A stretch of DNA of 58,001 bases from an uncultured Acidimicrobiaceae bacterium. GTDB taxonomy: Bacteria > Actinomycetota > Acidimicrobiia > Acidimicrobiales > SZUA-35. The stretch is from NCBI GenBank assembly GCA_964609665.1, contig CAZSTV010000003.1, forward strand, positions 26,219-84,219, read 5' to 3'. Shown one piece after another: positions 1,979-46,868 of this stretch (position 1 is its first letter; every line of letters starts with the position of its first letter). Made by a program: the position numbers and the translations under genes. The notes beneath the pieces are model-generated. The model was not told the origin of the DNA. It saw only the letters and a program-made list of their open reading frames with translations, and searched no databases.

Positions 1979-2656
1979 TCAGCTTGTCGCTGGCGCCATG
2001 TTCTCAAAGACGAAACTCTGTCGACCTAGCCGCCACCGCTCGGTCCGTCGCTGGAAGAGTGCAAACCCTGCCGCCTCGCAGCCGACGCGGGCCCCGCGGT
2101 TGCCCGCATCGACGTAGGTCGTGGCGTATCGCACCTGCTCGGAGTTGGCCTCCTTGGCGGCCATCGATGTCAGGTACATACCCTGGGCCATCAGGCCGCG
2201 GCCCCGAAACTCCGGCGGCACCCAGGCTCCTTCGACCAGGAGCGTGTCCGGGCCGTAGTCGGGAAACAGCCCGCCCCAGTAACTGCGAACCATGTCGAGT
2301 TGCCCAAACGGGATGTAGAACTGCAGGTACGCGGGACGTCCGTCCGGGTCCACCGCCACATAGCCACCGGAGAAGCCCTGGCTCCAGATCGCCTTGCGCC
2401 GTTCCAGGTACAGCTGATCCTGACCATCGAGGGTCGGCTCGTCGAAGAGCTTCCTGGCCAACGTTTTGTCGAGGGGCGCGATCCGCAGGTTGGGCACGGA
2501 CTCTTCCGGCGGCGCATGAGGCACCGCGTAGTCGCGACGAAACCCAAAGGACTCTGCATCGGAAGAGATCCAACGTCGCACATCATCTTGTACTTTCGCC
2601 CGGTCACCGCGAACGGCGTGGCGCGCCACCTGACGTACTCGACGAACTGCTGGCAT
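1979..2656 (-). CDS. GNAT-family N-acetyltransferase
   Basis: 225 aa with an acetyl-CoA-pocket-type motif (VPPEFRGRGLMAQGM). The ATG lies 13 bp downstream of the stop of the preceding operon gene. Confidence 0.6.
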   Translation of the reverse strand: MPAVRRVRQVARHAVRGDRAKVQDDVRRWISSDAESFGFRRDYAVPHAPPEESVPNLRIAPLDKTLARKLFDEPTLDGQDQLYLERRKAIWSQGFSGGYVAVDPDGRPAYLQFYIPFGQLDMVRSYWGGLFPDYGPDTLLVEGAWVPPEFRGRGLMAQGMYLTSMAAKEANSEQVRYATTYVDAGNRGARVGCEAAGFALFQRRTERWRLGRQSFVFENMAPATS

Positions 2657-13492: not shown

Positions 13493-13512
13493 ATTGGGTG
13501 ATATCACCCAAT
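13493..13512. promoter_or_regulatory. Perfect 20-bp palindrome ATTGGGTGATATCACCCAAT in the divergent promoter region of the polysaccharide locus (candidate operator)
   Basis: Verified base by base to be its own reverse complement. It lies in the 357-bp, lower-GC intergenic region 13377-13733 between the two divergent operons. Confidence 0.45.
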
Positions 13513-13733
13513 CCATCGACTCGGCGTATCCACGCCGGGCTGTCTCACGGTAGAGACCGGCAGAACAACAAACGATTCGCCTCTTGCGCGGATCAAAGCG
13601 AGAAGACCCAAAAGAGCACGAAGTTGACAAGGCTCAGCATCGGAATGGATAGACGTTCGCCACGCAGCGAATTCGTCTAATTCAACGCGCTCGTCCTGAA
13701 ATTTCTTCGCTTTCGAGTCAATCTGGAGAAGTT

Positions 13734-14135
13734 ATGGAGCAATCAACCGTATTGCTGTTGATTGGAATCATCGGAAACCTGGTGTTGGTTCTCCTGTTGG
13801 TGGTCGCATGGCGACTCCTGATGGGCAACCGAGACCCAAGAGGTTCGGGCAACTTCACGCCCGATGAGCAATATGACGACGACTGGGACGAGTCGGGCTA
13901 TCCCCTCGCCGCGATCACTGGCGAGATCCCGAACGACCAACTCGCCGGCCTGTTCCGCTTCGACTCCTGGTCGGCTACCGACGCAGGGTCGCCAGAACGC
14001 CAGGACGCCATGCGCCGCGACACCGCCCGCCATGAGGGCAGGCGTCGCGCCGCAACACGTCGTGACACCCCACGTCGAGAGACCAGGCGCAGCGCTGCAA
14101 GGCGCAACGGCCGCCCCACAACGACAGAAGGCTGA
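13734..14135 (+). CDS. Small single-pass membrane protein with Arg-rich repetitive C-terminal tail (unknown function)
   Basis: GGAGAAG RBS about 5 bp upstream of the ATG. TM helix VLLLIGIIGNLVLVLLLVVAWRLLMG. Tail RRDTARHEGRRRAATRRDTPRRETRRSAARRNGR. Stop is 6 bp before the asnB-like ATG. Confidence 0.5.
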   Translation: MEQSTVLLLIGIIGNLVLVLLLVVAWRLLMGNRDPRGSGNFTPDEQYDDDWDESGYPLAAITGEIPNDQLAGLFRFDSWSATDAGSPERQDAMRRDTARHEGRRRAATRRDTPRRETRRSAARRNGRPTTTEG

Positions 14136-14141
14136 TCCAAC

Positions 14142-16085
14142 ATGTGCGGAATTGCGGGTGAATACCGCCGTGACGGCCGACCGGTCGATCGTCGGACGCT
14201 GGTCGAGATGGCCGACGCGATGGTCCATCGCGGGCCGGATGATGCCGGCTACAGAAGCGAAAACGGGCCGATCGGCTTTGCGTTCAGGCGCCTGTCGATC
14301 ATCGACCTGGACGGTGGCAACCAGCCGTTGGCCACCGAGGACGGCTCCATCTGGGTCCTTGGCAACGGCGAGATCTACAACTACCGGGAACTCAAGACCG
14401 AACTGATCAGTCTTGGTCACACGTTCGCCACCGGGTCCGACATCGAGGTGGTCGTTCACGGCTACCGCCAGTGGGGCATCGACGTTGTCGACCGTCTCAA
14501 CGGCATGTTCGCCCTCGCCATCTGGGATGACAACCTCAAGCGCCTAGTGCTCGTTCGCGACCACCTGGGCATCAAGCCGCTGTACTACGCAGACGGTCCA
14601 GACCGGATCCGCTTCGGTTCCGAGATTCGGGCGGTCACCGCCGATGGCTCGATCCAGCGGACCCTCGACCAGGACAGCGTTCGGCTGTTCCTGCACTTTG
14701 GTTACCTCCCGGCCCCTCACACCCTCCTGGCCGGAGTTCGCAAACTCCCGCCAGGGCATCTCCTCATCGCCGATGAGTCCGGTGCAAAGGTCCATCGGTA
14801 TTGGAACCCTGAGCCACAGCATCGCCGCAACCTGTCGATCGAAGACGCCACCGCCGAGTACCAGGGTCTCGTTGACGAGAGCGTTGCCAGACAGTTGGTC
14901 AGCGACGTTCCCGTCGGTCTTCTGCTCTCCGGCGGCGTCGACTCCGCCATGGTGCTCGCCGCAGCGGAGAAGGCATCGGAGGGCTCGATCGACACGTTCA
15001 CCGTCGGTTTCGGCGAGGACTTTCGCTACGACGAGTCCAATCACGCGGCGGAGACCGCTGCGCTCTTCGGAGGCCAGCACCACCCGATCCGCCTGGACAT
15101 CGGCTCGTTCGCGTCCACGTTTGAAGAGTCGCTGTGGTCGCTCGAGGAACCGGTGCTCTCGCAGAGCACCTTCGCCTTTCACCTGCTGACCGCCGAGGTT
15201 CGCAAACACCTGAAGGTGGTGCTCACCGGGCAGGGCGCGGACGAACTGTGGGCGGGCTATGACCGCTACCTCGGCGAGCGTTACGGCTCGAAGGCCCGTT
15301 GGCTCTTCGGCTCCGCCGCCGCTCAGACCGTCAGTGGCAAGTTGCCAGGACTGACCCGTTTCGGTCGGGCAACCAGTTCCCTCGGCGAGGCCGACCCGGT
15401 GCGTCGCTTTGCGGCCATCCATCAAGTCTTTGCCCCGGAACAGATCGCCGCGGCGGCACGGGGTCCGCTTGCCCAGAGCGATGCCCGGGCCGAAGACGTC
15501 ATCGCGTACTGGCAGGAGCCCGTCTCCCACCTCGATGAGTTCTCCCAGTTGCTCTACGTGGACACCCGAATGTCGCTCGCCGACGATCTGCTGTTCTACG
15601 GCGACAAGCTGTCCATGGCCAACTCGGTCGAAGCCCGAGTCCCGCTGCTCGACCGTAAACTCGTCGACTTTGTTGAAGAGCTTCCCCCCGCCTTCAAGCT
15701 GCAGGGCCGCACCGGAAAACGAGTACACCGCAAAGCGGCGGAACGGATGTTGCCAAAGCACGTCCTGGGACGGCCGAAGCTTGGCTTTGCCACCCCGGTG
15801 GATGAGTGGTTCGCAAAGGACCTGACAAGCGCGGTCCGCAGCACGGTCCTGGCCGAGGACTCCTGGTGCACACAAAACCTTGCACCCGCATTCATCAACG
15901 GCCTGATCGACGACCACCTGTCGGGCGTCAGCAACAACCGGCGGCAACTCACCGCCCTGCTCTCATTCGAAATCGTTTGCCGCCAACAGCTCGATGGCCG
16001 GCCACCGGGCCTCATCGACCACCTGTCCCCAGAGGGACTCGTTTCAAGCACATCTACGACGTCGATTGGAGACGCTCAACAGTGA
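14142..16085 (+). CDS. asnB: Asparagine synthase (glutamine-hydrolysing) family amidotransferase (AsnB/WbpS-like, probably sugar-carboxylate amidation)
   Basis: 647 aa. N-terminal nucleophile MCGIAGEY..., GATase-II region and the SGGVDS PP-loop (LLLSGGVDSAMV). Confidence 0.85.
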   Translation: MCGIAGEYRRDGRPVDRRTLVEMADAMVHRGPDDAGYRSENGPIGFAFRRLSIIDLDGGNQPLATEDGSIWVLGNGEIYNYRELKTELISLGHTFATGSDIEVVVHGYRQWGIDVVDRLNGMFALAIWDDNLKRLVLVRDHLGIKPLYYADGPDRIRFGSEIRAVTADGSIQRTLDQDSVRLFLHFGYLPAPHTLLAGVRKLPPGHLLIADESGAKVHRYWNPEPQHRRNLSIEDATAEYQGLVDESVARQLVSDVPVGLLLSGGVDSAMVLAAAEKASEGSIDTFTVGFGEDFRYDESNHAAETAALFGGQHHPIRLDIGSFASTFEESLWSLEEPVLSQSTFAFHLLTAEVRKHLKVVLTGQGADELWAGYDRYLGERYGSKARWLFGSAAAQTVSGKLPGLTRFGRATSSLGEADPVRRFAAIHQVFAPEQIAAAARGPLAQSDARAEDVIAYWQEPVSHLDEFSQLLYVDTRMSLADDLLFYGDKLSMANSVEARVPLLDRKLVDFVEELPPAFKLQGRTGKRVHRKAAERMLPKHVLGRPKLGFATPVDEWFAKDLTSAVRSTVLAEDSWCTQNLAPAFINGLIDDHLSGVSNNRRQLTALLSFEIVCRQQLDGRPPGLIDHLSPEGLVSSTSTTSIGDAQQ

Positions 16086-17401
16086 ATATCTCAATTTTCG
16101 GGCTCGGCTACGTCGGGACCGTCACCGCCGCCTGCCTTGCGGGCAATGGCCACTCGGTGGTCGGAGTCGACGTTGCCGAACAGAAGGTCAATGACTTCAA
16201 CAGCGGGATCAGCCCGGTGCTCGAGGACGGCGTCGAGGAACTCCTCGCAGACGCCATCGCCGACAACCGCCTTCTTGGCACGACCGATATCAACGTTGCC
16301 ATCGAGGCATCCGACGTGGCGCTGATCTGCGTCGGAACGCCAAGTCGCTCCAACGGAGACATCGACCTCACCCACATCGAAACTGTTGTCGCCCAGATCG
16401 GGGCAGCGCTGGCAAGCCGCGAGCGTGCCGACCGCTTCACCGTGGTGATCAGGAGCACCGTGATGCCCGGCACCGCCGAGCGGGCAGGCGCCATCCTCGA
16501 AGAGCACAGCGGTCAAAAGCTTGGGGAGCGCGTCGACCTTGCGGTCAACCCGGAGTTCCTCCGCGAAGGTCAGGGCGTTGCAGACTTCCTCGACCCGCCG
16601 CTGATCCTCGTCGGCGCTGACAACGATGCGAGCGCCGACGTCATCCTTGGCATGTACAACGGCATCGACGCTGGGCGTCGTGTCGTGCCGGTCAGGGTTG
16701 CCGAGCTCATCAAGTACGCCAACAACAGTTGGCACGCCACCAAGGTCACCTTCGCAAACGAGATCGGTGTGCTTTCCCAGGCACTCGGCATCGACGGGCG
16801 CGAAGTGATGGACGTGGTCTGCAGCGACGAGAAGCTCAACATTTCCGCCGCCTACCTCAAGCCAGGTTTCGCATTTGGCGGCTCGTGTCTTCCGAAGGAC
16901 GTGCGGGCACTGAACTTCGCCGCCAAGGATCGAGACATCGCCACTCCGCTGCTGTCCAGCCTGCTGACCAGCAACGCCATTCAGGTCCTGCGTCTCATCG
17001 ACCAGCTGATCGAATGGGACGGGCGCCGCATCGGCTTTGTCGGGCTTGCATTCAAGGCCGGTACCGATGACCTGCGGGAGAGTCCCATCGTCGAGGTGGT
17101 CGAGCGCATGCTTGGCAAGGGCTTCGACTGCCGCATCTACGACGCCGACCTGAGTGCCGGTGATCTCGTCGGCTCCAACCGGGCCTACATCGAGTCACAG
17201 GTGCCGCACCTCAGCAAGCTGCTCGTCGATGACGTTGTCGAGCTTGCCACGACCTGCGATGTGTTGGTCGTGACGAAGCCCTCTGGTGAACTCGAAGCGT
17301 TCCTGGCAACGCCGGGCGACAACCCGGACCAAATCGTCGCCGACCTCGTCGGCATGTCCGCTCCTGCAGCGGGCCGTGAGTATCACGGGGTGGCGTGGTG
17401 A
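16082..17401 (+). CDS. GDP-mannose 6-dehydrogenase-like nucleotide-sugar dehydrogenase (AlgD-like)
   Basis: Trimmed to GTG 16082, a GTGA overlap with the asnB stop. VNISIFGLGYVGTVTAACLAGNGHSVVGVDV..., ICVGTPS, NPEFLREG, KPGFAFGGSCLPKDVRAL and FKAGTDDLRESP match my memory of P. aeruginosa AlgD almost motif for motif. Confidence 0.75.
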   Translation: MNISIFGLGYVGTVTAACLAGNGHSVVGVDVAEQKVNDFNSGISPVLEDGVEELLADAIADNRLLGTTDINVAIEASDVALICVGTPSRSNGDIDLTHIETVVAQIGAALASRERADRFTVVIRSTVMPGTAERAGAILEEHSGQKLGERVDLAVNPEFLREGQGVADFLDPPLILVGADNDASADVILGMYNGIDAGRRVVPVRVAELIKYANNSWHATKVTFANEIGVLSQALGIDGREVMDVVCSDEKLNISAAYLKPGFAFGGSCLPKDVRALNFAAKDRDIATPLLSSLLTSNAIQVLRLIDQLIEWDGRRIGFVGLAFKAGTDDLRESPIVEVVERMLGKGFDCRIYDADLSAGDLVGSNRAYIESQVPHLSKLLVDDVVELATTCDVLVVTKPSGELEAFLATPGDNPDQIVADLVGMSAPAAGREYHGVAW

Positions 17402-18633
17402 ATTCAGTTTCCAGCAATCGCAAGGGTCTGCACGCCCTCCTCGTCGTCGAGAACGCCCCGGTCCCCCACGACCGGCGGGTCTGGAATGAGGCCCGGGCAC
17501 TGGTCGACGACGGCTACGACGTGACGATCATCTCCCCGGCCGACAGTCGGGCCAAGGAGAGCCCCCGTTTCGAGCAATTGGACGGCGTGGACATCTATCG
17601 CTTCCGGATGCCCTTCGGCGGCGCCCGCAAGACGGACTTCCTGCTCGAATACTCCTGGGCCGCGCTCGCCATCCACTTTCTGGCGCTGCGAATCTTCATC
17701 AAGCACCGCTTCCACATCATCCACGTTGCCAACCCACCGGACATTTTCTTCGGCCTCAAGTGGCTGTTCGGTCTGGCCGGGGTCAAGTTCATCTTCGACC
17801 AGCACGACCTCGGTCCGGAGACCTATCAAAGCAAGTTCGATGACAACCGGGTCGATGCGCTGTGGCGGGTCCTGGCCTGGTTGGAGCGACGCACGTATCG
17901 GGCCTCCGATGCGGTGATCGTCACCAACGAGTCCTACAAGGCCCGAGCCCTGGGGCGGGGCAGCGTCCCGCCGGAGGAAGTCTTTGTTGTTCGCAACAGC
18001 CCGGACCCGGCGCTCTTCCAACCGCGTCCGGCAAAGCCTGAGCTCAAGGACGGGTATGAGCACATGGTGGTGTTCGTCGGGTCGATGGGGTTCCAGGACG
18101 GCGTCCAGATCCTGATCGACGCGGCCCATCATATGCGCGAGAAGCGCCAGCGCACCGACGTGCTGTTCATCCTGGTCGGCACCGGAGATGTCTGGGACCA
18201 ACTCCAGGAGCAGCATGAACGGCTCGGTCTCGGCGATGGCGTGCGGTTTACCGGCTTCATCTCCGACGACGACATGCTCGACTACCTCGCAACCGCAGAC
18301 CTTGGCGCAGCGCCGGACATCGACAATCCACTCAACGACATCTCGACCATGATCAAGACCATGGACTACATGGCGATGGGCGTGCCGGTGGTCAGCTTTG
18401 ACCTGACCGAGTCTCGCGCCTCGGCCGCGGACGCTGCGATCTACGTTGCCGATCACACTGCCGAGGCCTACGGCGACGCCGTAATCGAACTGCTCGATGA
18501 CCCGGAACGCCGCGAGACCATGGCGGCCTATGGGCAGGAGCGGATCAACGGACCGCTCTCATGGTCCCGGAGTGCGCTGCAGCTGACAGCGGCGTACGAC
18601 GAGGCCCTCGGTCTTAGGCCCAAGGGTCACTGA
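17395..18633 (+). CDS. GT4-family glycosyltransferase (GT-B fold)
   Basis: 412 aa. N-terminal GT4 domain (LLVVENAPVPHDRRVWNEARALVDDGYDVTIISP) and C-terminal Glycos_transf_1-type region (VVFVGSMGFQDGV...FTGFISDDDM). Start is the GTG at 17395 or 17398, overlapping the upstream stop (17399-17401). Confidence 0.8.
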   Translation: MVNSVSSNRKGLHALLVVENAPVPHDRRVWNEARALVDDGYDVTIISPADSRAKESPRFEQLDGVDIYRFRMPFGGARKTDFLLEYSWAALAIHFLALRIFIKHRFHIIHVANPPDIFFGLKWLFGLAGVKFIFDQHDLGPETYQSKFDDNRVDALWRVLAWLERRTYRASDAVIVTNESYKARALGRGSVPPEEVFVVRNSPDPALFQPRPAKPELKDGYEHMVVFVGSMGFQDGVQILIDAAHHMREKRQRTDVLFILVGTGDVWDQLQEQHERLGLGDGVRFTGFISDDDMLDYLATADLGAAPDIDNPLNDISTMIKTMDYMAMGVPVVSFDLTESRASAADAAIYVADHTAEAYGDAVIELLDDPERRETMAAYGQERINGPLSWSRSALQLTAAYDEALGLRPKGH

Positions 18634-18638
18634 TCGCA

Positions 18639-20318
18639 TTGACGAGCGGTGCCGGGCGACGGCCTGTAAGCAGAACCGCTGCAGTCGCCGTTGCCATCGC
18701 GTTGGTGGCCGCGGCGTGCGGTGGGGCTGACAGCGACAGCCAAGATGCGCCATCTGCCGAAGGCCCGACAACCACAGCCGCTGTCGGGTTCGGCGCGGCC
18801 GGAGACGACACGTCGGCCGCGGACCAGGACGAGGTTGGCGATGCCGCTGGAACCGGCGACGGCTCCAACGACGAGCAGCCACAGGTTGATGCCCCGGCCG
18901 ACCGACCGGAGATTGACGCCGCAACCCTGCTGGTCGGCGGCTGGTCCGCCGCGGGCACGGACTACCCGACCGGCGAAGAGGCGGCCACCATCTCCATCCT
19001 GGACTTCGGTGCGGTACCGGACGACGGACGCTCCGACTCAGCAGCGTTGGCCAGGGCGGTCGCAAGCAGTGGCGCCGACCCCGACCGGCCGACGGTGGTC
19101 GCGGTACCTGCCGGCAGGTTCATCCTCACCGATGAGTTGCGGCTGCGCAGCAGCACGGTGCTCCGCGGCGAGGGCCCGGACAGCACGCTGGTCATCGACT
19201 TTGCCAACGCCGACGGGCCGGGCATCACCGCCACCGGCACGGCGGCTGGAGACTGGATGGTGATCCAGTCCGACGTCGCCGTTGGCGCCACCGTCATCCA
19301 GGTGTCGGGGGCGGCTCGACTCCGCCCCGGCCAGCTGGTCGAAATCGAGCAGCGAACCAACCCCGAGGAGATCTACACCCGTGAGGAGTGGCGGGTCGAC
19401 TGGGACGCCGGATCCATCGGAGAACTCAACCGGGTTGTCAGCATCGATGGGTCATCGGTGGAGTTGGCCTCGCCGCTCAACGGGTCCTACCGGTCATCGC
19501 TGACCGCTGCGGTCCGACCGATCAATCCCGTCCAGGGGATCGGCATCGAAAACCTCACGATCACCCGGGCCGACGAGGGCTATGGCAACACCATCGCCTT
19601 CACCTTCGCCACCGACATCTGGCTGGATGGGGTGGAGAGCACTCGAACCTCGCGGGCCCACATCGGGATGAGCCAGATCTACCGGTGCCGGGTCAGCAAC
19701 TCCATCTTCCACGATGCAACCGACTTTGGAGACGGCGGCAGAGCCTACGGCATCAGCCTCGCCCGTCACGTCACCGGGTGCCTTGTCACCGACAACACCC
19801 TGTACGACCTCCGCCATGCCATCATCATTCAACTTGGGGCGAGCGGAAACGTCATCGCCTACAACGACGCCCGCGGCTCGGCCGGGTATGCGGACCGTCA
19901 GCCGCGAGCGGATCTGTCCCTCCACGGTCACTGGCCTCAGGCAAACCTGTTCGAGGGCAACGTGTTTGATCGGGTGGTGTTCGCCGACTGGTGGGGTCCG
20001 TCCGGCCCGGCCAACACCCTCTTTCGGAACTGTGTCCTCGACCACGTCCTGGTGGCCGACGCCTCGAACGACCAGGTGGTGGCGGGCAACCTGATCGGGC
20101 CCGGTGGTCTTGGCCTGGAGCTTGGCATCACCGGTACCACGCTCGCCGCCAATCGGACCAGCGGCGACAACACCCCGGTCGACGCGTCGGGCCTTCCGGA
20201 ATCGCTCGTCGCCGCTTCCGGCTTGGCCGTCGCGGACGGGCGCACGCCCATCGACCCGGCCCAGGGTTTCGCGGGTTGTCGCATCCCCGCATCGGAGCGC
20301 TCCCCCTTCGTCGATTGA
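18639..20318 (+). CDS. Secreted (probable lipoprotein) right-handed beta-helix protein, pectate-lyase-3 / tailspike-like putative polysaccharide depolymerase
   Basis: TTG start 5 bp after the GT4 stop. Signal-like N-terminus RRPVSRTAAVAVAIALVAAAC followed by an acidic/low-complexity linker. ISILDFGAVPDDGRSDSAALARAV is the hallmark Pectate_lyase_3 N-terminus. Beta-helix repeats present (DGGRAYGISLARHVTGCLVTDNTLYDLRHAIIIQLGASGNVIAYN). Confidence 0.65.
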   Translation: MTSGAGRRPVSRTAAVAVAIALVAAACGGADSDSQDAPSAEGPTTTAAVGFGAAGDDTSAADQDEVGDAAGTGDGSNDEQPQVDAPADRPEIDAATLLVGGWSAAGTDYPTGEEAATISILDFGAVPDDGRSDSAALARAVASSGADPDRPTVVAVPAGRFILTDELRLRSSTVLRGEGPDSTLVIDFANADGPGITATGTAAGDWMVIQSDVAVGATVIQVSGAARLRPGQLVEIEQRTNPEEIYTREEWRVDWDAGSIGELNRVVSIDGSSVELASPLNGSYRSSLTAAVRPINPVQGIGIENLTITRADEGYGNTIAFTFATDIWLDGVESTRTSRAHIGMSQIYRCRVSNSIFHDATDFGDGGRAYGISLARHVTGCLVTDNTLYDLRHAIIIQLGASGNVIAYNDARGSAGYADRQPRADLSLHGHWPQANLFEGNVFDRVVFADWWGPSGPANTLFRNCVLDHVLVADASNDQVVAGNLIGPGGLGLELGITGTTLAANRTSGDNTPVDASGLPESLVAASGLAVADGRTPIDPAQGFAGCRIPASERSPFVD

Positions 20319-20516
20319 CGAAATCGCGGCGTTTGCCCTAAAGGCCTAGGCGGGAGGAGCGCTGCGAGGAGTTCTCCTCAGGTGCTTGGATCAGGCGACC
20401 TTTAGAATAAACCGGACGGGCCGTATCCTGGCGGGGATTCGACACGCTTGTTAGGTCGAGGTTACCTATATCCCTTCGCGGCAAGATTCGCGTTGGGGGT
20501 TCAGCGAGGAGAAGAT

Positions 20517-22430
20517 ATGGGCGGCGCCGTGCGTGCTGGCTTGCGGAGAACAGAGCTGCTTCGGGTCGTGGAGGCCGCGAAGGCTGGCGACAAACAGGCC
20601 ACGAACGAGCTGATCAGCTACTGCCTTCCCCAGGTGGAGTCCTATGTGGCAAACCGTGGAGCCGCTCATCCGGAAGCACTGGCCAATCTGGTCATGGCGG
20701 AGTTCGTGCGGAGCCTTGGCCGGCTGGAGTTCCGCAGCCCGGGCCAGGTATGGAGCTACATATATCAGGTGTCGCGCAGTCGCCTGGTAGACGAACGACG
20801 CAAGGTAAAGCTCGAGACGGCGACGGACGCTATTGAAGGTGTCGACGGGCGCAGTAGCGACTTCGACAACCACGTCGTCGACGAGATGTGGGTCACCGAC
20901 TTACTGTCAGGCCTGACCGAAGATCAGCGACAGGTTGTCGAGCTTCGGTTCAAGGACGACCTCACGCTGGAAGAAACAGCGCGACGGGTCGGTAAGACAC
21001 TTACCGCCGTCAAAGGTCTGCAGCGGCGAGCGCTGGCAACCTTGGCCGCGGTGGCAGCAATCATCGCCATTATCTGGACTGTCGACGCCGCCGATGTGCG
21101 GGTCCTGTCCGCAGACCCCGCCGAATCCAACAACTCGACGCCGGCCCCCGGCCCCAGCGGCCTCGGACCCTCTGCAATCGACCGGGCGCGGGCCATGACC
21201 GATGGCAACGCAAGCTCGTTGTACGCGGCCACAATTGAAGCGAACCCACCCGTCGTCACCCAGGACACGGCGGGCACACCGATGTCAGGGCCCGGTGGCC
21301 CCACCGGCGGGGAACCCGGACCGGCAAGCTCAACTACAACAGTCCCGGAGAACGCCACGTCGACCACCGTGCCATCAACGGTGCCAGCGGAGAACCCGGT
21401 CGCCGACGTCCCCACCACGACGATTCCCCCTAGCGGAAGTGACGGGTCAAACGGAGCCGACGGACCCAGCGGCGAGACCGGAACGGTGCCCACCGTCCCA
21501 CCGGAAACGGTCCCCGCCGTTGCGGTGAATGACGTTGCCAGCATTGCCTACATTCCGCGAACCCTGATCTCGATCGACATCGACGTCCTAGCGAACGACG
21601 TCGAGCCGTACTACCCGCTGTCGCTACGGGTCGTCTCCCACCCACAGAACGGATTCGTCGACCTGATCAGCGGCGGCGAGCGTCCCGTGATTCGCTTCTA
21701 CCCCGACGCGGCCGGTGACAGCTTCTTTGAATATGAGGTATGCAGCCCGACGGGTTGCCACAAAGCCGTGGTCAACACATCAACGTATTGGTACGGCGAT
21801 CCCTGTCGGGGCCTGGTCCCGACCATCGTCGGCACCGCTGGTAACGATCTCCTCACGGGCACGACAGGACCGGACATCATCTTCGGCCTTGGGGGCGATG
21901 ACGTCATCGTCGGCGGCGACGGCGACGACATCATCTGCGGTGGTGAAGGACATGACACGATCAGCGGAGACCCCGGATCCGACATTCTCTCAGGCGGCCC
22001 CGGCGAAGACGACATTCGCGGCGGCAAGGGCGACGACTTGATCTTCGGTGGCCAAGGAGTCGACTTCCTCGATGGCAACAATGGATCGGACTACCTCTAC
22101 GGAGGTGACGATGCCGATGACATCAGCGGTGGCATGGAGCGAGACATTATCTATGGCGAGGCCGGCAATGACGTGATCAACGGCAACGACCGGAGCGATC
22201 TGCTGTTCGGCGGCATCGGTAATGACCGTCTCATCGGTGAAGGGTCATCGGACCTGATGCACGGTGGGCTTGGTAGCGACTACCTACAGACCGGGCCGGG
22301 GCTTGACCGAATCGTCGACGTTGAGCCTCACGACCGTCTGTTGGTCGATGCAGAGGACAGCATCGAAGGCTGGGTTGGCCCCGAGGGGTGCAACCTTAAC
22401 TTCGGTGTCGAAACGGTCTGTCGACCGTAG
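20517..22430 (+). CDS. Membrane-tethered ECF-type sigma-70 factor fused to a TM helix, Pro/Thr-rich spacer, cadherin/VCBS-like domain and RTX (hemolysin-type Ca-binding) repeats
   Basis: Trimmed to ATG 20517, with an AGGAG about 7 bp upstream. Sigma region 2-like (ELISYCLPQVESYV...WSYIYQVSRSRLVDERRK) and region 4 HTH (TEDQRQVVELRFKDDLTLEETARRVGKTLTAVKGLQRRA). These are followed directly by TM AAVAAIIAIIWTV. Then VAVNDVASIAY...LANDVEP...FFEYEV and at least 10 GGxGxD nonapeptides (GGDGDDIICGGEGHDTISGDPGSDILSGGPGEDDIRGGKGDDLIFGGQGVD...). Confidence 0.7.
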   Translation: MGGAVRAGLRRTELLRVVEAAKAGDKQATNELISYCLPQVESYVANRGAAHPEALANLVMAEFVRSLGRLEFRSPGQVWSYIYQVSRSRLVDERRKVKLETATDAIEGVDGRSSDFDNHVVDEMWVTDLLSGLTEDQRQVVELRFKDDLTLEETARRVGKTLTAVKGLQRRALATLAAVAAIIAIIWTVDAADVRVLSADPAESNNSTPAPGPSGLGPSAIDRARAMTDGNASSLYAATIEANPPVVTQDTAGTPMSGPGGPTGGEPGPASSTTTVPENATSTTVPSTVPAENPVADVPTTTIPPSGSDGSNGADGPSGETGTVPTVPPETVPAVAVNDVASIAYIPRTLISIDIDVLANDVEPYYPLSLRVVSHPQNGFVDLISGGERPVIRFYPDAAGDSFFEYEVCSPTGCHKAVVNTSTYWYGDPCRGLVPTIVGTAGNDLLTGTTGPDIIFGLGGDDVIVGGDGDDIICGGEGHDTISGDPGSDILSGGPGEDDIRGGKGDDLIFGGQGVDFLDGNNGSDYLYGGDDADDISGGMERDIIYGEAGNDVINGNDRSDLLFGGIGNDRLIGEGSSDLMHGGLGSDYLQTGPGLDRIVDVEPHDRLLVDAEDSIEGWVGPEGCNLNFGVETVCRP

Positions 22431-30923: not shown

Positions 30924-33900
30924 ATGACTCAAAACATGCCGATCCGGCGGACACCGAGGTCCAAGCTACTACTAGTAATTATCGCGGCACTTGGAATGTT
31001 GGGGACCCTGGTCGTACCAGGTCCGGCCGACGCTGCGGAAGGCGCCACCACCATCATGGAGGTCCAGGGCGACAACCACCTGTCGCCGATGGTGGGCGAG
31101 ACCGTGACAACCTCGGGCATCGTCACCGCAGTAGCGTTCTCCGGCTTCTACATGCAGGATCCCACGGGTGACGGCGACGACAACACGTCAGACGGCATCT
31201 TCGTTTTCACCGGCAGCAACCCAGGGGTGACCGCTGGAGATGAGGTGGAAGTGACCGGTACGGTCAGCGAGTTCATCGGTGGCGGCCCCGACACTGGCAA
31301 CCTCTCCATCACCCAAATTTCCGGCGATGCCACCGTGCTGAGCAGCGGCAACCCGCTCCCCGCACCGGTCGAAATCGGCAGGCGTGGTCGGACCGCTCCA
31401 TCGGACGTTGTGATCTCCGAAGACGAGCTCCCGACCAACCTCCAGACCGACGCCGCCGTCTTCAATCCCGACGTCGACGCCATCGACTTCTACGAGACCA
31501 TGGAAGGCATGTATGTAGAGGTCGTGCTGCCGGTAGCCACCTCGGCCACCCGTCAGTTCAACTCGTTCTCGAGCGAGTTCTTCGCCCTCCCAAGTCGAGG
31601 AAACACCGTGACACCACGGGACGCCCTCAGCGATCGAGGCGGCATCCTTCTTCAGCCGGACCCGGACAACACCGGCGACCAGAACGGCGATCGAATCCAG
31701 ATCCAGTTCGACGGCACCATCTACCCTGCCGATCCACCGGCGATCAAGGTCGGCGACAGGCTTCGGGACATTCGGGGCGTTGTCGGCTACTCCTTTGGCA
31801 ACTACGAGGTGAACGCCACCCAGGAGCTGAGCATCCCGCAGGGCAATACCCGGGAAGAGCGGACCAGCCTTCGCGGTTCCGGTAACCGAGTCTCGGTTGC
31901 CACCTACAACGTGTTGAACCTCAGCCCAGATGCGTCGGACGACGCGCAGCGGGCCAAGCTGGCGGAACAGGTTGTATACAACCTTCGTTCCCCGGACGTC
32001 ATTGCACTGCAGGAGATTCAGGACAACTCCGGTGAGCTCAACGACGGTGTGACCGCGGCAGACCAGACCCTTACCGCGCTGGTGGACGCAATCGCCGCCG
32101 CCGGTGGTCCGACCTACAGCTACTTCGATTTCACCCCCGCTGACGGCCAATTCGGTGGCATCCCGGGCGGCAACATTCGAAACGCCTTCCTGTACAACGC
32201 CGATCGTGTTGACATGCTCGACTCGGTGTCACTGAGCCCGGCGTTGCTGGCCCAACTCGGCGTTGAGAACCCGGATGCCTGGGCCGACAGTCGGTCCCCG
32301 CTCGTCGGTCTGTTCTCCTTCGACGGCAAACCGTTCACCGTGGTCAACGTGCACAACACGTCCCGCTTCGGGTCAACCCCGATCTTCGGTGGACCGCAGC
32401 CCTTCGTTCAGGCCGGTGAGCAGGCCAGAGAAGATCAGGCCGCGGCACTCAACGTGTTTGTCGACACCATTCTGGCCGACAACCCCGACGCCAGCGTGAT
32501 GATCGCCGGTGACTTCAACACCTTTGAGTGGACAAACGATCTTGCCGACATCCTCCCCGGCGAAGACGATGTGGTGACCAACCTGTTGCTCACCCCGTCG
32601 CTGTCCTCGACCGACCGAGATGACCTGTACACCTTCATCTTTGATGGAAACTCCCAGGCGCTCGATCACTTCTTCGTGACGGAGAACCTCCGGCCCGTGG
32701 TCCGCAGCAGGGTCGACATCGTTCACGTGAACGTCGACTTCCCTCGGCTGTTCAGCGAGGTCACGGCCAGCGACCACGAGCCGATCGTCGGCCGGTTCAG
32801 AGTGCCGCAGTCCTCGGGGCCGACCGAGCTGCCGAAGCTGTCCGGAGAAGCACTGAGCCTCCAGGTGCTGCATGCCTCTGACCTCGAAGGCGGTGTGGAG
32901 GCCCTCGACCGGGCCACCAACTTCGCCGCCATCGTCGATTCGCTTGAGGACTCATCGGACGTTGACGCCTCGGTGACAATCTCAGCAGGCGACAACTACA
33001 TCCCCGGTCCGTTCTTCGGAGCCTCCGGCAACGGCGGCCTTCGCGATGTCTTCCAGGCCCTGTATCAGGACTTCTACGATGAGCCCGGTCTGACCAACAT
33101 CCGTGAGGACGGCGGTCGGGGCGACATAACCATCATGAACATCATCGGCTTCGACGCCTCGGCACTCGGTAACCACGAGTTCGACGCAGGAACCGATGCC
33201 ATCGCAAGCATCGCCGGTCAGGACGTCCGAGGGTCCACCCTCGGCGACGTTCGCTGGCTTGGTGCGACCTTCCCCTATCTGAGCGCCAACCTGGACTTCT
33301 CCCAGGACGGCAACCTCAGTGGGCTCTTCACCTCTGACCTGCTGGACAGCACGGCCTTCGCCGCAACTCCAGCTGAGGCGATCGCCGGTGCGAACCCACC
33401 AAAGATCGCTCCGTCGACGATCATCAACGTCGACGGTGGTCAGCAGATCGGTGTGGTCGGTGCGACCACCCAGCTGCTCGCGCAGATTTCTTCGCCCGGC
33501 GCCACCTCGGTGATCGGCGGGACCGGCAACAATATGCCGGCGCTGGCAGCGTTGCTGCAGCCGGAGATCGATGCCCTTGAAGCCGCCGGTGTAAACAAGA
33601 TCATCGTCACAAGCCACCTGCAGCAGCTGGCCTTGGAAGAGGAACTAGCAACGCTGCTTGACGGTGTCGACATCATCATCGCCGGAGGGTCCGACAGCCT
33701 GTTGGCAAACGATGATGACAACCTGCGGCCCGGCGACGCTGCCGATCGGCCGTATCCGGTGACGGCGACCGATGCTGGCGGTGACCCTGTGGCCATCGTC
33801 AGTACCGACGGCCAGTACAGCTACGTCGGCCGCTTGGTCGTCGACTTTGACAGCGCCGGCGTGCTCGACCTCACAGGACTTGATCTGGCACTGAACGGCC

Positions 33901-34820
33901 CGGTCAAGACCGATGACACCGAAGTGGAAGCGCTCTGGGGTTCGGTTGCGGCCGCGACCGCCGACGGAACAAAGGGCGGACAGGTCAAGACCCTGGTAGA
34001 CGCCATCAGTGGAATCGTGCTTGCTTCGGATGGCAACGTCCTCGGTGAAAGCTCGGTCTTCCTCGACGGTCGCCGCAGCCAGGTCCGGACCGAAGAAACC
34101 AACTTCGGTGACTTGAGCGCTGACGCCAACCTGGCTGAAGCCCAAGCCTTCGACGATTCGGTAGTCATGTCGATCAAGAACGGTGGCGGTATCCGGGCCG
34201 CTATCGGTGAAATCGACAGCAACGGCAACCTGCTGCCGCCTCCGGCCAACCCGTTGGCCGGAAAGCTGGCGGGCCAGGTCAGCCAGCTTGACCTCGAAAA
34301 CAGCCTTCGGTTCAACAACGGCCTTTCGTTGCTGACGCTGACGGCTGAGGAACTGCTGGCGGTCGTTGAGCACGCTGTTGCAGCGACCGAACCGGGGGCT
34401 ACCCCCGGTCAGTTCGCTCAGATCGGCGGTGCCCGCTTCGAATACGACTCATCAGCAGCGGCCGGATCCCGGATCCAGACTCTGGTGCTGACCGATGCCT
34501 CCGGCGCTGACTCCGAGACCATCGTTGCCGAGGGTGCCCTTGTGGTGGATGCGGCTTCGACGTATCGCATCGTCACCCTCAACTTCCTGGCCGGTGGCGG
34601 CGACGGGTATCCCTTTGATGCCCTTGCGGCCGGCGACCGGGTTGACCTGACCGACGTGCTTACCGCTGACGGTGCGGCGACCTTCACCGACGCCGGATCG
34701 GAGCAGGACGCACTGGCTGAATTCCTGATCGCCAACCACGGCATTGGTGACGGCACGCCGTTTGCCGCTGCCGAGACCCCGGCGGATCAGGACACCAGAA
34801 TCGTCGACATCGCAGGCTGA
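30924..34820 (+). CDS. Secreted ExeM/NucH-type extracellular endonuclease (EEP domain) fused to a UshA-like 5'-nucleotidase / metallophosphoesterase
   Basis: GAGGAGG RBS and a signal peptide (LLLVIIAALGMLGTLVVPGPADA). The ExeM/NucH N-terminus is IMEVQGDNHLSPMVGETVTTSGIVTAV..GFYMQDP..DDNTSDGIFVF. EEP motifs are ATYNVLN, ALQEIQD, AGDFN and SDHEPIV. The metallophosphatase motifs are LHASDLEG, GDNYIPGPFF and GNHEFD, with a 5'-NT C-domain (NFGDLSADA, IKNGGGIRA). Confidence 0.85.
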   Translation: MTQNMPIRRTPRSKLLLVIIAALGMLGTLVVPGPADAAEGATTIMEVQGDNHLSPMVGETVTTSGIVTAVAFSGFYMQDPTGDGDDNTSDGIFVFTGSNPGVTAGDEVEVTGTVSEFIGGGPDTGNLSITQISGDATVLSSGNPLPAPVEIGRRGRTAPSDVVISEDELPTNLQTDAAVFNPDVDAIDFYETMEGMYVEVVLPVATSATRQFNSFSSEFFALPSRGNTVTPRDALSDRGGILLQPDPDNTGDQNGDRIQIQFDGTIYPADPPAIKVGDRLRDIRGVVGYSFGNYEVNATQELSIPQGNTREERTSLRGSGNRVSVATYNVLNLSPDASDDAQRAKLAEQVVYNLRSPDVIALQEIQDNSGELNDGVTAADQTLTALVDAIAAAGGPTYSYFDFTPADGQFGGIPGGNIRNAFLYNADRVDMLDSVSLSPALLAQLGVENPDAWADSRSPLVGLFSFDGKPFTVVNVHNTSRFGSTPIFGGPQPFVQAGEQAREDQAAALNVFVDTILADNPDASVMIAGDFNTFEWTNDLADILPGEDDVVTNLLLTPSLSSTDRDDLYTFIFDGNSQALDHFFVTENLRPVVRSRVDIVHVNVDFPRLFSEVTASDHEPIVGRFRVPQSSGPTELPKLSGEALSLQVLHASDLEGGVEALDRATNFAAIVDSLEDSSDVDASVTISAGDNYIPGPFFGASGNGGLRDVFQALYQDFYDEPGLTNIREDGGRGDITIMNIIGFDASALGNHEFDAGTDAIASIAGQDVRGSTLGDVRWLGATFPYLSANLDFSQDGNLSGLFTSDLLDSTAFAATPAEAIAGANPPKIAPSTIINVDGGQQIGVVGATTQLLAQISSPGATSVIGGTGNNMPALAALLQPEIDALEAAGVNKIIVTSHLQQLALEEELATLLDGVDIIIAGGSDSLLANDDDNLRPGDAADRPYPVTATDAGGDPVAIVSTDGQYSYVGRLVVDFDSAGVLDLTGLDLALNGPVKTDDTEVEALWGSVAAATADGTKGGQVKTLVDAISGIVLASDGNVLGESSVFLDGRRSQVRTEETNFGDLSADANLAEAQAFDDSVVMSIKNGGGIRAAIGEIDSNGNLLPPPANPLAGKLAGQVSQLDLENSLRFNNGLSLLTLTAEELLAVVEHAVAATEPGATPGQFAQIGGARFEYDSSAAAGSRIQTLVLTDASGADSETIVAEGALVVDAASTYRIVTLNFLAGGGDGYPFDALAAGDRVDLTDVLTADGAATFTDAGSEQDALAEFLIANHGIGDGTPFAAAETPADQDTRIVDIAG

Positions 34821-46100: not shown

Positions 46101-46868
46101 GTAGATCGTGGTGGGGTTGCCAACGAGGCGGGTGTGGCGCTTCACCATGGAGCCGAGGAACACGTCGCCGTTCTTGGGGTTGACGCCCTGTCCCCAGACC
46201 GTGCCAACCTGGCCCAGGGTTGCGGTGACTTCATAGGACGGTGACGCCCAGTCGGTTTCGGCGTTCGAGTCCTGCACCCCGTCGACCACCTTCACAACGG
46301 CGGGCATGTTGTCATGATCGGCAACGTTGCCGAACAGGAAACATGACGTGATCAGGTGGGGGTTGTTCTGACAGAACGATCCGGGGGCGACAATGCCGAG
46401 GTTGCCCGCAGCGCCGTCACCGTCGAACGGAGCGGCGCAGTCGCTCGGCGCGGCGATGAACTGGGTCATCGTGCCGCTGTCCGGTCCGGCGTGGCCGGAC
46501 TGCCAGCCCGACGGCAGGGTGGAGAACTCCACCCGGACCGGGAACTGGGCATCGTCCACGGTCACGCTCCACTCACCGTTTGCATCGGTGGTGTCGGTAA
46601 CGACCACGCCGGTCGAGGAGGTCACCGTGACGGTAACACCCGCAACGCCGGGGTCGAGCTCGGTGGAGAACGATCCGGTGCTGGAACCCTGCGAGTCGTT
46701 GACCTCGCTGTAGTCCTCGTTTCGTTCACCGTCGGCGTCGTAGTCTTCATAGACGACGCCGCCACATGAGACGGGTGTGGCCGAGGCGACCGACGGTGAG
46801 AATGTCACCGTGATCGCGAGCAGTATGAAGGCGAGGACGGCTCGCCCTGCCGATCGCAACGTATACAT
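43191..46868 (-). CDS. Cell-wall-anchored (LAFTG sorting signal) surface protein with 5 SdrD-B/Cna-B-like repeats and a ~450-aa unassigned central domain
   Basis: Signal peptide (AVLAFILLAITVTFSPSVASA). Repeats are of the form GN.VWFD.N.DG..D..E......V.L.D..G.......TD..G.Y.F. The C-terminus is LAFTG followed by a hydrophobic helix and RRRK, which is the sortase-E-type LAxTG signal. Confidence 0.8.
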   Translation of the reverse strand: MYTLRSAGRAVLAFILLAITVTFSPSVASATPVSCGGVVYEDYDADGERNEDYSEVNDSQGSSTGSFSTELDPGVAGVTVTVTSSTGVVVTDTTDANGEWSVTVDDAQFPVRVEFSTLPSGWQSGHAGPDSGTMTQFIAAPSDCAAPFDGDGAAGNLGIVAPGSFCQNNPHLITSCFLFGNVADHDNMPAVVKVVDGVQDSNAETDWASPSYEVTATLGQVGTVWGQGVNPKNGDVFLGSMVKRHTRLVGNPTTIYRLTESGSLSTWFVSDPTATDPHTAEADATALGLSNPLDGWMYDFGAFDDVGKAGLGDVEVSPDGSTLYTIDLGRRELVAVTINADGSAGAVTRTAITATTLGISGSCAASDVRPFGLGFNEAGLLHVGAVCSAESTVPASFSPITSAGPALGTPSALGAWVHSFDGSFFSQVTTVPVPTTSRGSSVSGGTAFSQVAEWRPWVDKMPYASADLPDYGNTYPQPMVSDIDFDGDDIIVSVMDRWAHQTGANAFYEDWSAAIQPNAGFASEQPISSGDIVRGVWGGSSYSFPAGDDDSRDYFYDGDFYSTSHVETAIGAVVQIPGRPYVISNSFDPNDAANTWQSGGLAWFDNTTGDKVNGVRLYNGRTAGIDIGTFEKAAGIGDLEANCGIASIQIGNRVWFDANEDGIQDPGEQPLNGVVVELLDSSGSVIATTTTDANGTYYFDNITADTDYKVRLAQTNYNAGGVFAAGGAHVGKGVVTVADAGSDDALDSDAMLMNGLPSISVNVSVTDHTFDFGMVPGVELGNLVWFDIDNDGVRDAGESAAPGVTVNLLDSDGNQIASETTDADGHYSFPSLAPGSYVVEIPASMFAAGAPLAGWYISTGSGVSTNADDDVDDNSDGEQVGSAVRSSTVTVTVGTEPTAEVDESPNGIADGSSNLTVDFGFYTASLGNLVWFDANNDGVKDPAEAVVAHAVLHLFDGAGNPVTDGSGNNRITSTDVNGNYSFTGLEEGTYIVEMIAGNFTSGGALYGFGSSSGNNINGTAPDPDNDNDDDDNGDMIFGGAVRSQPIVLAAVGEPNGSNNPTVDFGFVQAAGIGNYVWFDVDRDGVQDANEAAVPGITATVYSCGPNVAVGSAVTDAQGMWIVDGLSPGDYCVTFTDPEDRGWTVRNQGDDTADSDPLPTGRTDVINLSPGELDLTVDAGITPDGPTTLAFTGPSMVAIQLMLASWSIVAGIGLLWWSRRRKLVVE

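Follow-up and report, generated by a model that had tools for sequence, protein, structure and literature searches.

A predicted membrane-tethered ECF sigma factor with an RTX ectodomain beside a polysaccharide locus of an uncultured Acidimicrobiales bacterium

A 58,001-nucleotide stretch of DNA from an uncultured Acidimicrobiaceae bacterium (contig CAZSTV010000003.1, assembly GCA_964609665.1; the whole stretch is called the window here) carries a gene in which an extracytoplasmic function (ECF) sigma factor, a single transmembrane (TM) helix, a cadherin-like Big_9 domain and an RTX beta-roll are joined in one polypeptide, referred to below as the sigma-RTX protein. A complete ECF (group 4) sigma factor makes up the N-terminal 171 residues, and the recognition helix of its region 4 runs directly into the membrane helix. 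To account for this arrangement, we favor a tether-and-cleave mechanism, to which we assign a probability of roughly 0.55: the intact, membrane-bound sigma factor would be inactive, and proteolysis would free it to act at its own promoter and at a promoter of the adjacent polysaccharide genes.

The sigma domain and the reality of the fusion

The ECF sigma domain covers residues ~10-176 of the 637-residue protein. The initial annotation had proposed that the N-terminus be compared with sigma factor profiles, and the ECF models matched above their cut-offs. In Pfam, Sigma70_r4 (PF04545) matched residues 129-176 with 44.8 bits, Sigma70_r4_2 (PF08281) scored 33.4 bits, and Sigma70_ECF (PF07638) matched residues 15-166 with 22.6 bits against a cut-off of 21.1. 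The NCBIfam model TIGR02937 (sigma70-ECF) matched residues 28-176 with 49.5 bits against a cut-off of 42.9. The Pfam region 2 model, PF04542, gave no match on the sigma-RTX protein itself. Region 2 is nevertheless present, because PF04542 matches 44 of 96 family members (including L014, above threshold at 27.3 bits), the N-terminus aligns end to end with the solved ECF sigma factors 9isn_F (E = 3e-8) and R. sphaeroides RpoE (2q1z_A), and the AlphaFold2 (AF2) model contains a sigma-2 helical bundle. Regions 1.1 and 3 are absent, and the cytoplasmic part is only ~171 residues long. The nearest named NCBIfam models were ShbA (PRK09648, 55 bits against 209) and BldN (TIGR02952, 46.8 bits against 206), both far under the cut-offs for equivalog status.

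The AF2 model, built from an alignment of 11 sequences, places the sigma-2 helices at residues 11-100 with a predicted local distance difference test (pLDDT) score of 78-91, and sigma-4 at residues 112-180 with a pLDDT of 73-79. When the model was searched against the PDB with Foldseek, RTX blocks IV-V of CyaA ranked first, followed by BldN, sigmaE, SigL, SigK, CnrH and SigW; the matches with an ECF sigma fold include 1or7, 5wuq, 4nqw and 6dxo. Contact with the -35 element is expected of K166, Q169, R170 and R171, which are conserved in 63-94 of 96 relatives.

An artefact was also considered, in which a sigma gene and a separate gene for a secreted RTX protein had been merged by a frameshift or a chimeric contig. 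The low-complexity Pro/Thr region between the two halves is an error-prone kind of place, and an orthologue of the ECF52 sigma factors is itself split at such a region (PMC5826349), but no positive evidence of an artefact was found in the window. The open reading frame (ORF) starts with an ATG codon that has a GAGGAG ribosome-binding site 6 nt upstream, and its GC content at third codon positions is 0.71-0.77 throughout in one frame, with no indication of a frame change. The identical ORF occurs on three independent assemblies (JGI 3300039178, a 117-kb ENA scaffold and a Logan assembly). At least 7 orthologues with 44-66% identity have the same architecture. The full-length relatives in the protein database are P0002-P0007 (44-49% identity, Pfam string unchanged); in the remoter relatives P0008, P0020 and P0023/24, the sigma domain is fused to different outside domains. 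Since the TM helix lies inside the end of sigma-4 and not beyond it, there is also no space for a stop codon followed by a new start with a signal peptide. Together with the recurrence of the architecture in about 100 family clusters, these observations rule out a frameshift, chimera or two-gene artefact to the point where we give it practically no weight. The one-polypeptide fusion put forward in the initial annotation is kept in the orthologues and in a large family, the two-gene explanation named there as its refutation has been checked and does not apply, and every element that had been listed lies where it had been placed.

The membrane helix and the missing anti-sigma domain

Residues 172-191 form the only hydrophobic segment of the protein, with a 19-residue Kyte-Doolittle mean of 2.15. 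The 21 residues before the segment contain six Lys/Arg and no Asp/Glu, while the 21 residues after it contain no Lys/Arg. Because there is a single hydrophobic segment with positive charges before it and none after it, the sequence predicts a single-pass type II membrane protein with its N-terminus in the cytoplasm and its C-terminus outside. In the AF2 model, the sigma-4 recognition helix and the TM helix are parts of one unbroken helix spanning residues 162-189. Solved stand-alone ECF sigma factors align to residue ~180 and then stop, so that they end where the hydrophobic segment begins; this leaves a linker of zero length and no space for a cytoplasmic anti-sigma domain. Pfam searches at E<=1 found no zf-HC2 (PF13490), RskA or other anti-sigma model in the protein, and C36 is the only cysteine of the cytoplasmic part. 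As the initial annotation had pointed out, no anti-sigma gene adjoins the sigma-RTX gene either.

The four expected -35 contact residues sit 1-6 residues from the hydrophobic core. Because of this proximity, we infer from the model that the intact protein could not seat sigma-4 on DNA and on the beta-flap of RNA polymerase, and that the tether itself would be inhibitory.

The cytoplasmic half of the TM helix (21030-21060, residues 172-182) is strikingly alanine-rich across the family, with the consensus RRALAALAAAAAIAA. Speculatively, a cut within the membrane could leave the sigma factor with an Ala-rich C-terminus, like the Clp degrons of cleaved anti-sigma factors.

The ectodomain and its juxtamembrane proline motif

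The outside part begins with the one extracytoplasmic element that is common to all family members, a short motif located 8-12 residues past the membrane with the family consensus [VTI]-[VIL]-[DSE]-x-x-P-[AV]-[DE], or in short form V-V-D-x-x-P-A-D. Of 95 divergent representatives of the family, 94 have the proline (Pro201), a degree of conservation like that of the key sigma-4 residues V165 and Q169, and the proline is followed by Ala or Val in 84 of 94 representatives. The motif lies in a segment predicted to be disordered, and its conservation there suggests a site of processing or recognition. Autoproteolysis of the RsgI type, at an Asn-Pro bond, was considered for this motif and rejected: the residue before the proline varies (D/E/G/A/T/N), and the segment is predicted to be disordered. 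For the same two reasons, recognition by a protease or a partner protein is likelier than autocleavage.

This motif also bears on the reading in which the sigma factor is active at the membrane, in the manner of ToxR or CadC, and recruits RNA polymerase without any proteolysis. The polysaccharide operon would then be expressed beside the export machinery, and the ectodomain would modulate activity by allostery or clustering. Action at the membrane had been raised in the initial annotation; it agrees with the absence of both an anti-sigma domain and a linked protease gene, and the putative target genes encode membrane and exported proteins. However, the recognition helix passes into the TM helix without a break, and its contact residues lie close to the hydrophobic core, which leaves no space for the -35 DNA and the beta-flap. 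The analogous IutY protein is inactive until it is cut by RseP (PMC5411451), and the near-invariant proline motif, placed as it is in disordered sequence outside the membrane, has the look of a site for processing or recognition. An anchored, uncleaved sigma factor is consequently judged unlikely.

The motif is followed by a long spacer in which residues 196-335 (140 residues) consist of 17% Pro, 15% Thr and 11% Ser; in the AF2 model, residues 190-333 are disordered with a pLDDT below 40. The Pfam model PF17963 (Big_9) reached 26.6 bits against a cut-off of 23.6 when residues 321-448 were scanned alone, with Cadherin_4 remaining below threshold, and AF2 places an Ig-like beta-sandwich at residues 339-425. 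The C-terminal part was matched by PF00353 (HemolysinCabind) with 148 bits. It consists of 18 RTX nonapeptides at residues 437-598 in an unbroken 9-residue register, and the model shows a beta-roll at residues 436-617 (pLDDT above 90) for which the Foldseek match to CyaA RTX blocks IV-V is entry 6sus. The Pro/Thr/Ser-rich spacer of about 150 residues, the cadherin-type segment and the run of about 10 or more RTX repeats that had been read from the sequence initially are all confirmed by these results, with 18 repeats in the run.

The ectodomain contains four conserved cysteines, which is consistent with an extracytoplasmic location. The annotated neighbours of the sigma-RTX gene include no ABC-type or membrane fusion protein (MFP) genes for export, although no dedicated test for a type I secretion system (T1SS) was made; export of the RTX module would go via the internal signal-anchor.

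In another reading, the protein is mainly an RTX/Ig adhesin or an S-layer-like, calcium-dependent component of the matrix, displayed on a Pro/Thr stalk; the sigma domain would report its turnover or shedding as a housekeeping feedback, or would be a decaying remnant that serves only to anchor the protein in the cytoplasm. The Big_9 and RTX unit is 40% identical over 267 residues to P0045, a non-sigma protein of secreted type, a Pro/Thr stalk is typical of wall-spanning surface proteins, and in some paralogues nothing but an acidic disordered tail lies outside the membrane. The pattern of conservation points the other way. In comparisons with the orthologues, sigma-4 is the most conserved part of the protein (78-89% identity), followed by sigma-2 (56-71%), whereas identity falls to ~50% in the RTX module, ~36% in Big_9 and 18-29% in the spacer. 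The signature residues of regions 2.3/2.4 and 4.2 are kept across ~100 divergent clusters, whatever their ectodomain, and a conserved cognate promoter-like motif exists. A primarily structural role of the protein is therefore given a still smaller chance than an anchored, uncleaved sigma factor.

A family of sigma factors fused to membrane helices

When one genome for each GTDB species was scanned, 19 loci of the same build were obtained, all of them in metagenome-assembled genomes (MAGs) of Acidimicrobiales/Actinomycetota; some genomes have two copies. In an exhaustive HMMER search with residues 1-215 against 1.84 billion representatives, 3038 matches were obtained at E<=1e-3 and 301 at E<=1e-10. 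Among the best 150 of the 3038 matches, 105 are at least 300 residues long, and 100 of these 105 have a strong hydrophobic segment right after sigma-4. The family comprises at least 100 clusters at 50% identity in which a sigma domain is followed immediately by a TM helix. The 10 clusters that were sampled consist entirely of MAG or metagenome sequences, with 1-3 members each.

The outside domains differ widely from member to member. Among 96 representatives, RTX was found in 17, DUF1996 in 7, ricin-B lectin in 6, TSP3 and PKD in 2 each, and pentapeptide repeats, DUF642 and LamG in 1 each; the remainder have no Pfam domain outside. The ectodomains that could be assigned are modular and mostly glycan- or calcium-binding.

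A profile search with 24 N-terminal family sequences gave 26 matches, which were mostly short stand-alone ECF sigma factors. The nearest stand-alone relative, L020 (198 residues), is followed at the +1 position by an overlapping gene that encodes a single-pass membrane protein, which is the classical arrangement of an ECF sigma factor and its anti-sigma factor. Because L020 still has this overlapping membrane protein, the comparison suggests that the fused family replaced a separate membrane partner of the L020 type.

The literature searched contains no description of a sigma factor fused to RTX, ricin or DUF1996 domains, or of the juxtamembrane motif; the ECF group catalogue was not compared, and earlier cataloguing there is possible. 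The family is apparently undescribed.

Two further arrangements were seen at family loci. A second, convergent family member of 328-342 residues is encoded at L033 (4838-5842, minus strand), L035 (7549-8577, minus strand) and L037 (5826-6812, minus strand) and is absent from the window. It consists of a sigma domain, a TM helix, the juxtamembrane motif of the family (VSTAPAD) and, as its only part outside, an acidic disordered tail. Its role could be that of a decoy or a partner, or it could represent the sensor in minimal form. At four other loci, a DUF1996 gene lies directly upstream of the sigma gene (L014 8374-9840, L016 8297-9925, L017 6144-7964 and L019 3013-4617), overlapping it or a few nucleotides away. 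The protein it encodes is homologous to the ectodomain of the DUF1996-type sigma factor itself, so that the sensor head resembles a co-transcribed protein.

A conserved promoter-like motif

Type A sigma genes have in common an upstream motif, GTATCC-N16-17-CG(C/T)T(A/T)G, which lies 60-90 nt before the start codon. Its conservation was assessed with the pattern GTATC[CG]-N16-17-CGnTn[GT] in the 400 nt upstream of the sigma gene. The motif was present, in the same relative position, in 13 of 23 family loci, compared with 0.0082 occurrences per 400 nt in the remainder of these loci. Among the matches are type B genes, and the proteins that they encode share only ~36% identity with the window protein. 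Several matches counted as elsewhere fall ~39 nt in front of the conserved DUF1800-DUF1501 genes by which type B sigma genes are preceded; at this distance from the DUF1800 start codon, transcription would give a leaderless transcript. This arrangement of a type B gene (Ig-like plus RTX) with a preceding DUF1800-DUF1501 pair was seen at L004 (5919-8150), L005 (6035-8243), L012 (6339-8369) and L010 (7988-9661).

Within the window, a regular-expression scan found the strict motif twice, compared with 0.23 occurrences expected from dinucleotide shuffles; the two matches are the site upstream of the sigma-RTX gene and the site at 13526, which precedes a polysaccharide operon. When the window was scored with a position weight matrix (PWM) trained on other loci only, the 20423 site ranked first and the 13526 site fourth, the latter being the only other intergenic PWM match in the correct orientation. 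Autoregulation through the family motif is well supported as a prediction from these comparisons, and control of the polysaccharide operon by the sigma factor is likely. The promoter of the form GGAAC-N16-17-CGT that had been expected initially was not borne out; what is conserved instead is GTATCC-N16-17-CGnTnG.

An inverted repeat, TTGGG-N8-CCCAA (TTGGGTGATATCACCCAA), lies at 13494-13511, a short way upstream of the polysaccharide operon's promoter-like motif. It is conserved at five loci: the window and the upstream regions of the AsnB genes at L033 (5843-6028), L035, L036 and L037. The repeat probably serves as an operator through which a second regulator acts on the polysaccharide operon.

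The polysaccharide locus and other neighbours

The first 20.3 kb of the window (1-20.3 kb) are a polysaccharide locus. In addition to the features in Table 1, it encodes acyltransferases of the GNAT/FemAB and hexapeptide types, a MurJ-type flippase, a Bac_transf priming transferase, a DegT aminotransferase and a GFO/IDH/MocA oxidoreductase. The set that forms the putative target operon also adjoins the orthologous sigma-RTX genes at L033/34, L035, L036 and L037, and L033 has GFO, DegT and Bac_transf genes as well. The set is located downstream of the sigma gene at the orthologous loci and upstream of it in the window. A second pectate-lyase-like protein at L036 is 69% identical to the one encoded at 113-1405 of the window. 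The gene at 1982-2656 (minus strand, 225 residues, no Pfam match) is the orthologue of a divergently transcribed neighbour of the sigma gene at the orthologous loci (213-226 residues, 52-64% identity). In the window it is 18 kb from the sigma gene, at the opposite end of the polysaccharide locus, and this displacement points to an inversion or insertion in the window lineage. Because the gene set is shared despite the changed order, the association between the sigma factor and the polysaccharide genes has survived rearrangement. The position beside a polysaccharide locus, which was noticed in the initial annotation, is accordingly upheld by the conserved gene set and by the shared promoter-like motif.

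The same is not true of the downstream neighbour, which the initial annotation had named as a PilZ protein. This PilZ-like protein contains RRSSAR (RxxxR) and DLSTGG (DxSxxG) motifs with PilZ-like spacing, its Pfam score is below threshold, and no homologue was found at any orthologous sigma locus. On this last ground it was rejected as a functional partner; the neighbour is incidental and unlikely to be part of the system.

Two other large, exported proteins encoded in the window are unrelated to the system. One has 1224 residues and is of surface type, with four SdrD_B repeats and SpaA/CarboxypepD_reg domains (43191-46868, minus strand), and the other has 1298 residues and combines Exo_endo_phos with a 5'-nucleotidase (30924-34820, plus strand).

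Table 1. Positions in the window of the sigma-RTX gene, its parts and associated features.
Feature	Position	Strand	Basis
Sigma-TM-Big_9-RTX fusion gene, 637 aa	20517..22430	+	one ORF
Sigma region 2 (residues ~10-100), with W79-x-Y-x-Y-x-x-S-R-S-R-L-x-D-E-R-R block	20544..20816	+	TIGR02937, PF07638
Sigma region 4 helix-turn-helix (residues ~112-176)	20850..21044	+	PF04545, PF08281
Single TM helix (residues 172-191), overlapping and continuing the sigma-4 recognition helix	21030..21089	+	hydropathy, AF2
Disordered Pro/Thr/Ser/Gly-rich spacer (residues 192-335)	21090..21521	+	composition, pLDDT, low identity
Extracytoplasmic juxtamembrane motif VLSADPAE (residues 196-203)	21102..21125	+	family alignment
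Big_9 cadherin-like Ig domain (residues ~336-430), conserved Cys409/Cys414	21522..21806	+	PF17963
RTX beta-roll, 18 nonapeptides and capping strands (residues ~436-617)	21822..22367	+	PF00353
Promoter-like motif GTATCC-N16-CGCTTG before the sigma gene, putative autoregulatory ECF-type promoter	20423..20450	+	position, conservation
Second copy, GTATCC-N16-CGGTAG, before the small TM protein/AsnB/UDP-glucose dehydrogenase/GT4/pectate-lyase-like operon	13526..13553	+	strict pattern
Putative target operon: 133-aa TM protein, AsnB-type amidotransferase, UDP-glucose/GDP-mannose dehydrogenase, GT4, pectate-lyase-like lipoprotein	13734..20318	+	Pfam
Two pectate-lyase-like proteins	113-1405 and 18639-20318		Pfam
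PilZ-like downstream neighbour, 223 aa	22544-23215	+	PF07238, 20.9 bits against cut-off 22.5

Proposed mechanism

Starting from the observed architecture, topology signals, conservation, synteny and promoter-like motif, the tether-and-cleave model proposes inhibition by the tether, proteolytic release, a signal perceived outside the cell and a regulon. A single-pass protein would act as both sensor and transcription factor. As long as the protein is intact, the -35-binding surface of sigma-4 would be pinned at the membrane, and the membrane tether would stand in for an anti-sigma domain. The Big_9 domain and the 18-repeat RTX beta-roll would form a sensing head on a flexible Pro/Thr stalk. A change in the head, either contact with a ligand or polysaccharide or calcium-dependent folding, would expose the juxtamembrane region to a site-1 protease. 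The first cut, near the proline motif, would leave a stub short enough for a site-2 protease (S2P), and this S2P/Rip1-type enzyme would cut the alanine-rich TM helix and free the sigma domain. The freed sigma factor would direct RNA polymerase to promoters of the form GTATCC-N16-17-CGnTnG, so that the regulon would consist of its own promoter, giving positive autoregulation, and of the adjacent operon for an amidated, uronic-acid polysaccharide. Candidates for the signal are the cell's own polysaccharide, which is probably amidated and contains uronic acid, calcium acting through RTX folding, and surface contact.

Several points weigh against this model. Every family member is from an uncultured organism. 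The locus has no linked protease gene, the search for S2P having been confined to the window, and the TM helix does not have the helix-breaking residue that is often present in S2P substrates. At seawater-like calcium concentrations the RTX roll would stay folded permanently, so that calcium may be structural and not a signal. The promoter-like motif is short, and neither window site (PWM scores of 15.5 and 13.7 bits) scores higher than the maxima from shuffled sequences, so that the case for the motif rests on position and conservation and not on score. The upstream regions of the orthologous AsnB genes keep a -10-like CGTTAG, but their -35 region (CCAATCAC) fits poorly.

A more far-reaching version, which we regard as doubtful, would make the family a phylum-restricted set of plug-in, one-component sigma factors. 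The lipid bilayer would be the anti-sigma factor, with the sigma-4 recognition helix buried at the membrane; the proline motif would be a universal gate for site-1 cleavage, and any extracellular fold (RTX, lectin, DUF1996 or pentapeptide) could serve as the sensor. In the window protein, RTX would act as a calcium-driven switch between order and disorder. A drop in calcium at the cell surface, for example through chelation by the cell's own uronic-acid polysaccharide, would unfold the RTX roll, which would then be degraded. The sigma factor would be released with an Ala-rich C-terminal stub that may double as a Clp degron, and the outcome would be a pulse of transcription of the polysaccharide locus.

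If the tether-and-cleave model is correct, the sigma-RTX protein would be a minimal and modular form of transmembrane signalling to RNA polymerase, which is of interest for synthetic biology; ECF sigma factors already serve there as orthogonal switches. It would also provide a testable processing motif and a first handle on the regulation of surface polysaccharides in abundant, uncultured marine or freshwater Acidimicrobiales. Through the RTX roll, extracellular calcium or the state of the matrix would join the signals that ECF sigma factors read.

Comparison with known systems

Classical pairs of an ECF sigma factor and an anti-sigma factor that are released by regulated intramembrane proteolysis include sigmaE-RseA, SigW-RsiW, and SigK/L/M/D of M. 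tuberculosis with Rip1. The sigma fold in these pairs is the same as in the window protein, and the membrane partner is likewise a single-pass protein with its N-terminus inside and its C-terminus outside. In the classical pairs, a cytoplasmic anti-sigma domain wraps around sigma-2 and sigma-4, whereas the window protein has a covalent tether instead. The ectodomain resembles secreted RTX/Big_9 proteins (P0045-type proteins, the RTX part of CyaA and serralysin-type beta-rolls) in its GGxGxD beta-roll, and P0045 also has a preceding Big_9 domain. Such proteins leave the cell by secretion (through T1SS in diderms) and lack a cytoplasmic part, while the RTX module of the window is the ectodomain of a predicted type II membrane protein.

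A different likeness is found in the SigI/RsgI systems of Clostridia and Bacilli, which, as background that draws in part on PMC10575876, comprise paralogous single-pass sensors with interchangeable outer glycan-binding modules, each controlling a cognate sigma factor and polysaccharide-related genes nearby. The logic is similar in that a modular head outside governs the release of sigma activity inside. RsgI is a separate anti-sigma factor whose sigma-binding domain is cytoplasmic, SigI does not belong to the ECF sigma factors, and the two are not fused.

The groups ECF48, ECF52 and ECF53 are similar to the window protein in being actinobacterial ECF sigma factors with a C-terminal, TM-containing extension, a proline-rich outside spacer and a binding module. 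The defining features of ECF52 (SCO4117 of Streptomyces coelicolor) are a zinc-finger anti-sigma domain that separates the sigma domain from the TM helix and a carbohydrate-binding module (PMC5826349). Proteolytic release has been proposed for ECF48/52/53, and positive autoregulation for sigma factors of the ECF52, ECF48 and ECF53 types (PMC8999054, PMC5826349). In these groups, a zf-HC2/ZAS domain lies between sigma-4 and the TM helix; the window protein has none and a linker of zero length. The C-terminal module of ECF52 binds carbohydrate, in contrast to the Big_9 and RTX domains of the window protein, although lectin-type modules (ricin-B, LamG and DUF642) are present in other members of the fused-sigma family. 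Membership of ECF52 was rejected because the window protein has no zinc finger; a carbohydrate-binding module is missing as well, and the TM helix begins at residue 172, inside the last sigma-4 helix. The kinship with ECF52 suggested in the initial annotation is not supported by this architecture.

Among characterised proteins, the sigma/anti-sigma hybrid IutY of Pseudomonas putida, which takes part in cell-surface signalling, comes closest. Its sigma domain, TM helix and periplasmic domain form one polypeptide that is inactive when intact; Prc and then the S2P RseP free a sigma domain of ~23 kDa, and truncated forms that retain the TM helix still require RseP (PMC5411451). Both proteins have a cytosolic ECF sigma factor joined to a single TM helix without a cytoplasmic anti-sigma N-tail, a domain outside, and no separate anti-sigma factor. 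IutY is a FecI-type sigma factor from a Gram-negative bacterium and has been placed in ECF243 (PMC8999054), whereas the window sigma factor is nearest to actinobacterial models of the ShbA/BldN type and belongs to an Acidimicrobiales host. IutY has a FecR-type periplasmic domain and a TonB-dependent transducer as its partner, whereas the window protein has a Pro/Thr stalk with Big_9 and RTX domains; Pfam found no FecR match in it, and its neighbours are polysaccharide genes, not a TonB-dependent transducer. IutY has been called unique, while the window protein belongs to a family of at least 100 clusters that has a juxtamembrane proline motif of its own.

Until now, self-fused sigma/TM sensors have been known mainly from this one studied case and from the catalogue entries ECF48/52/53 with their anti-sigma zinc finger. 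The principle of a sigma-TM-sensor fusion is already known from IutY and from the mechanism proposed for ECF52, and by its architecture the window protein is a member of neither group. The novelty lies in how large and modular the family is, in the complete lack of any anti-sigma domain, in a motif outside the membrane that is invariant, and in the RTX head. The locus in the window reveals a large natural family in which the DNA-recognition helix is joined to a membrane helix and the outside heads are freely swapped.

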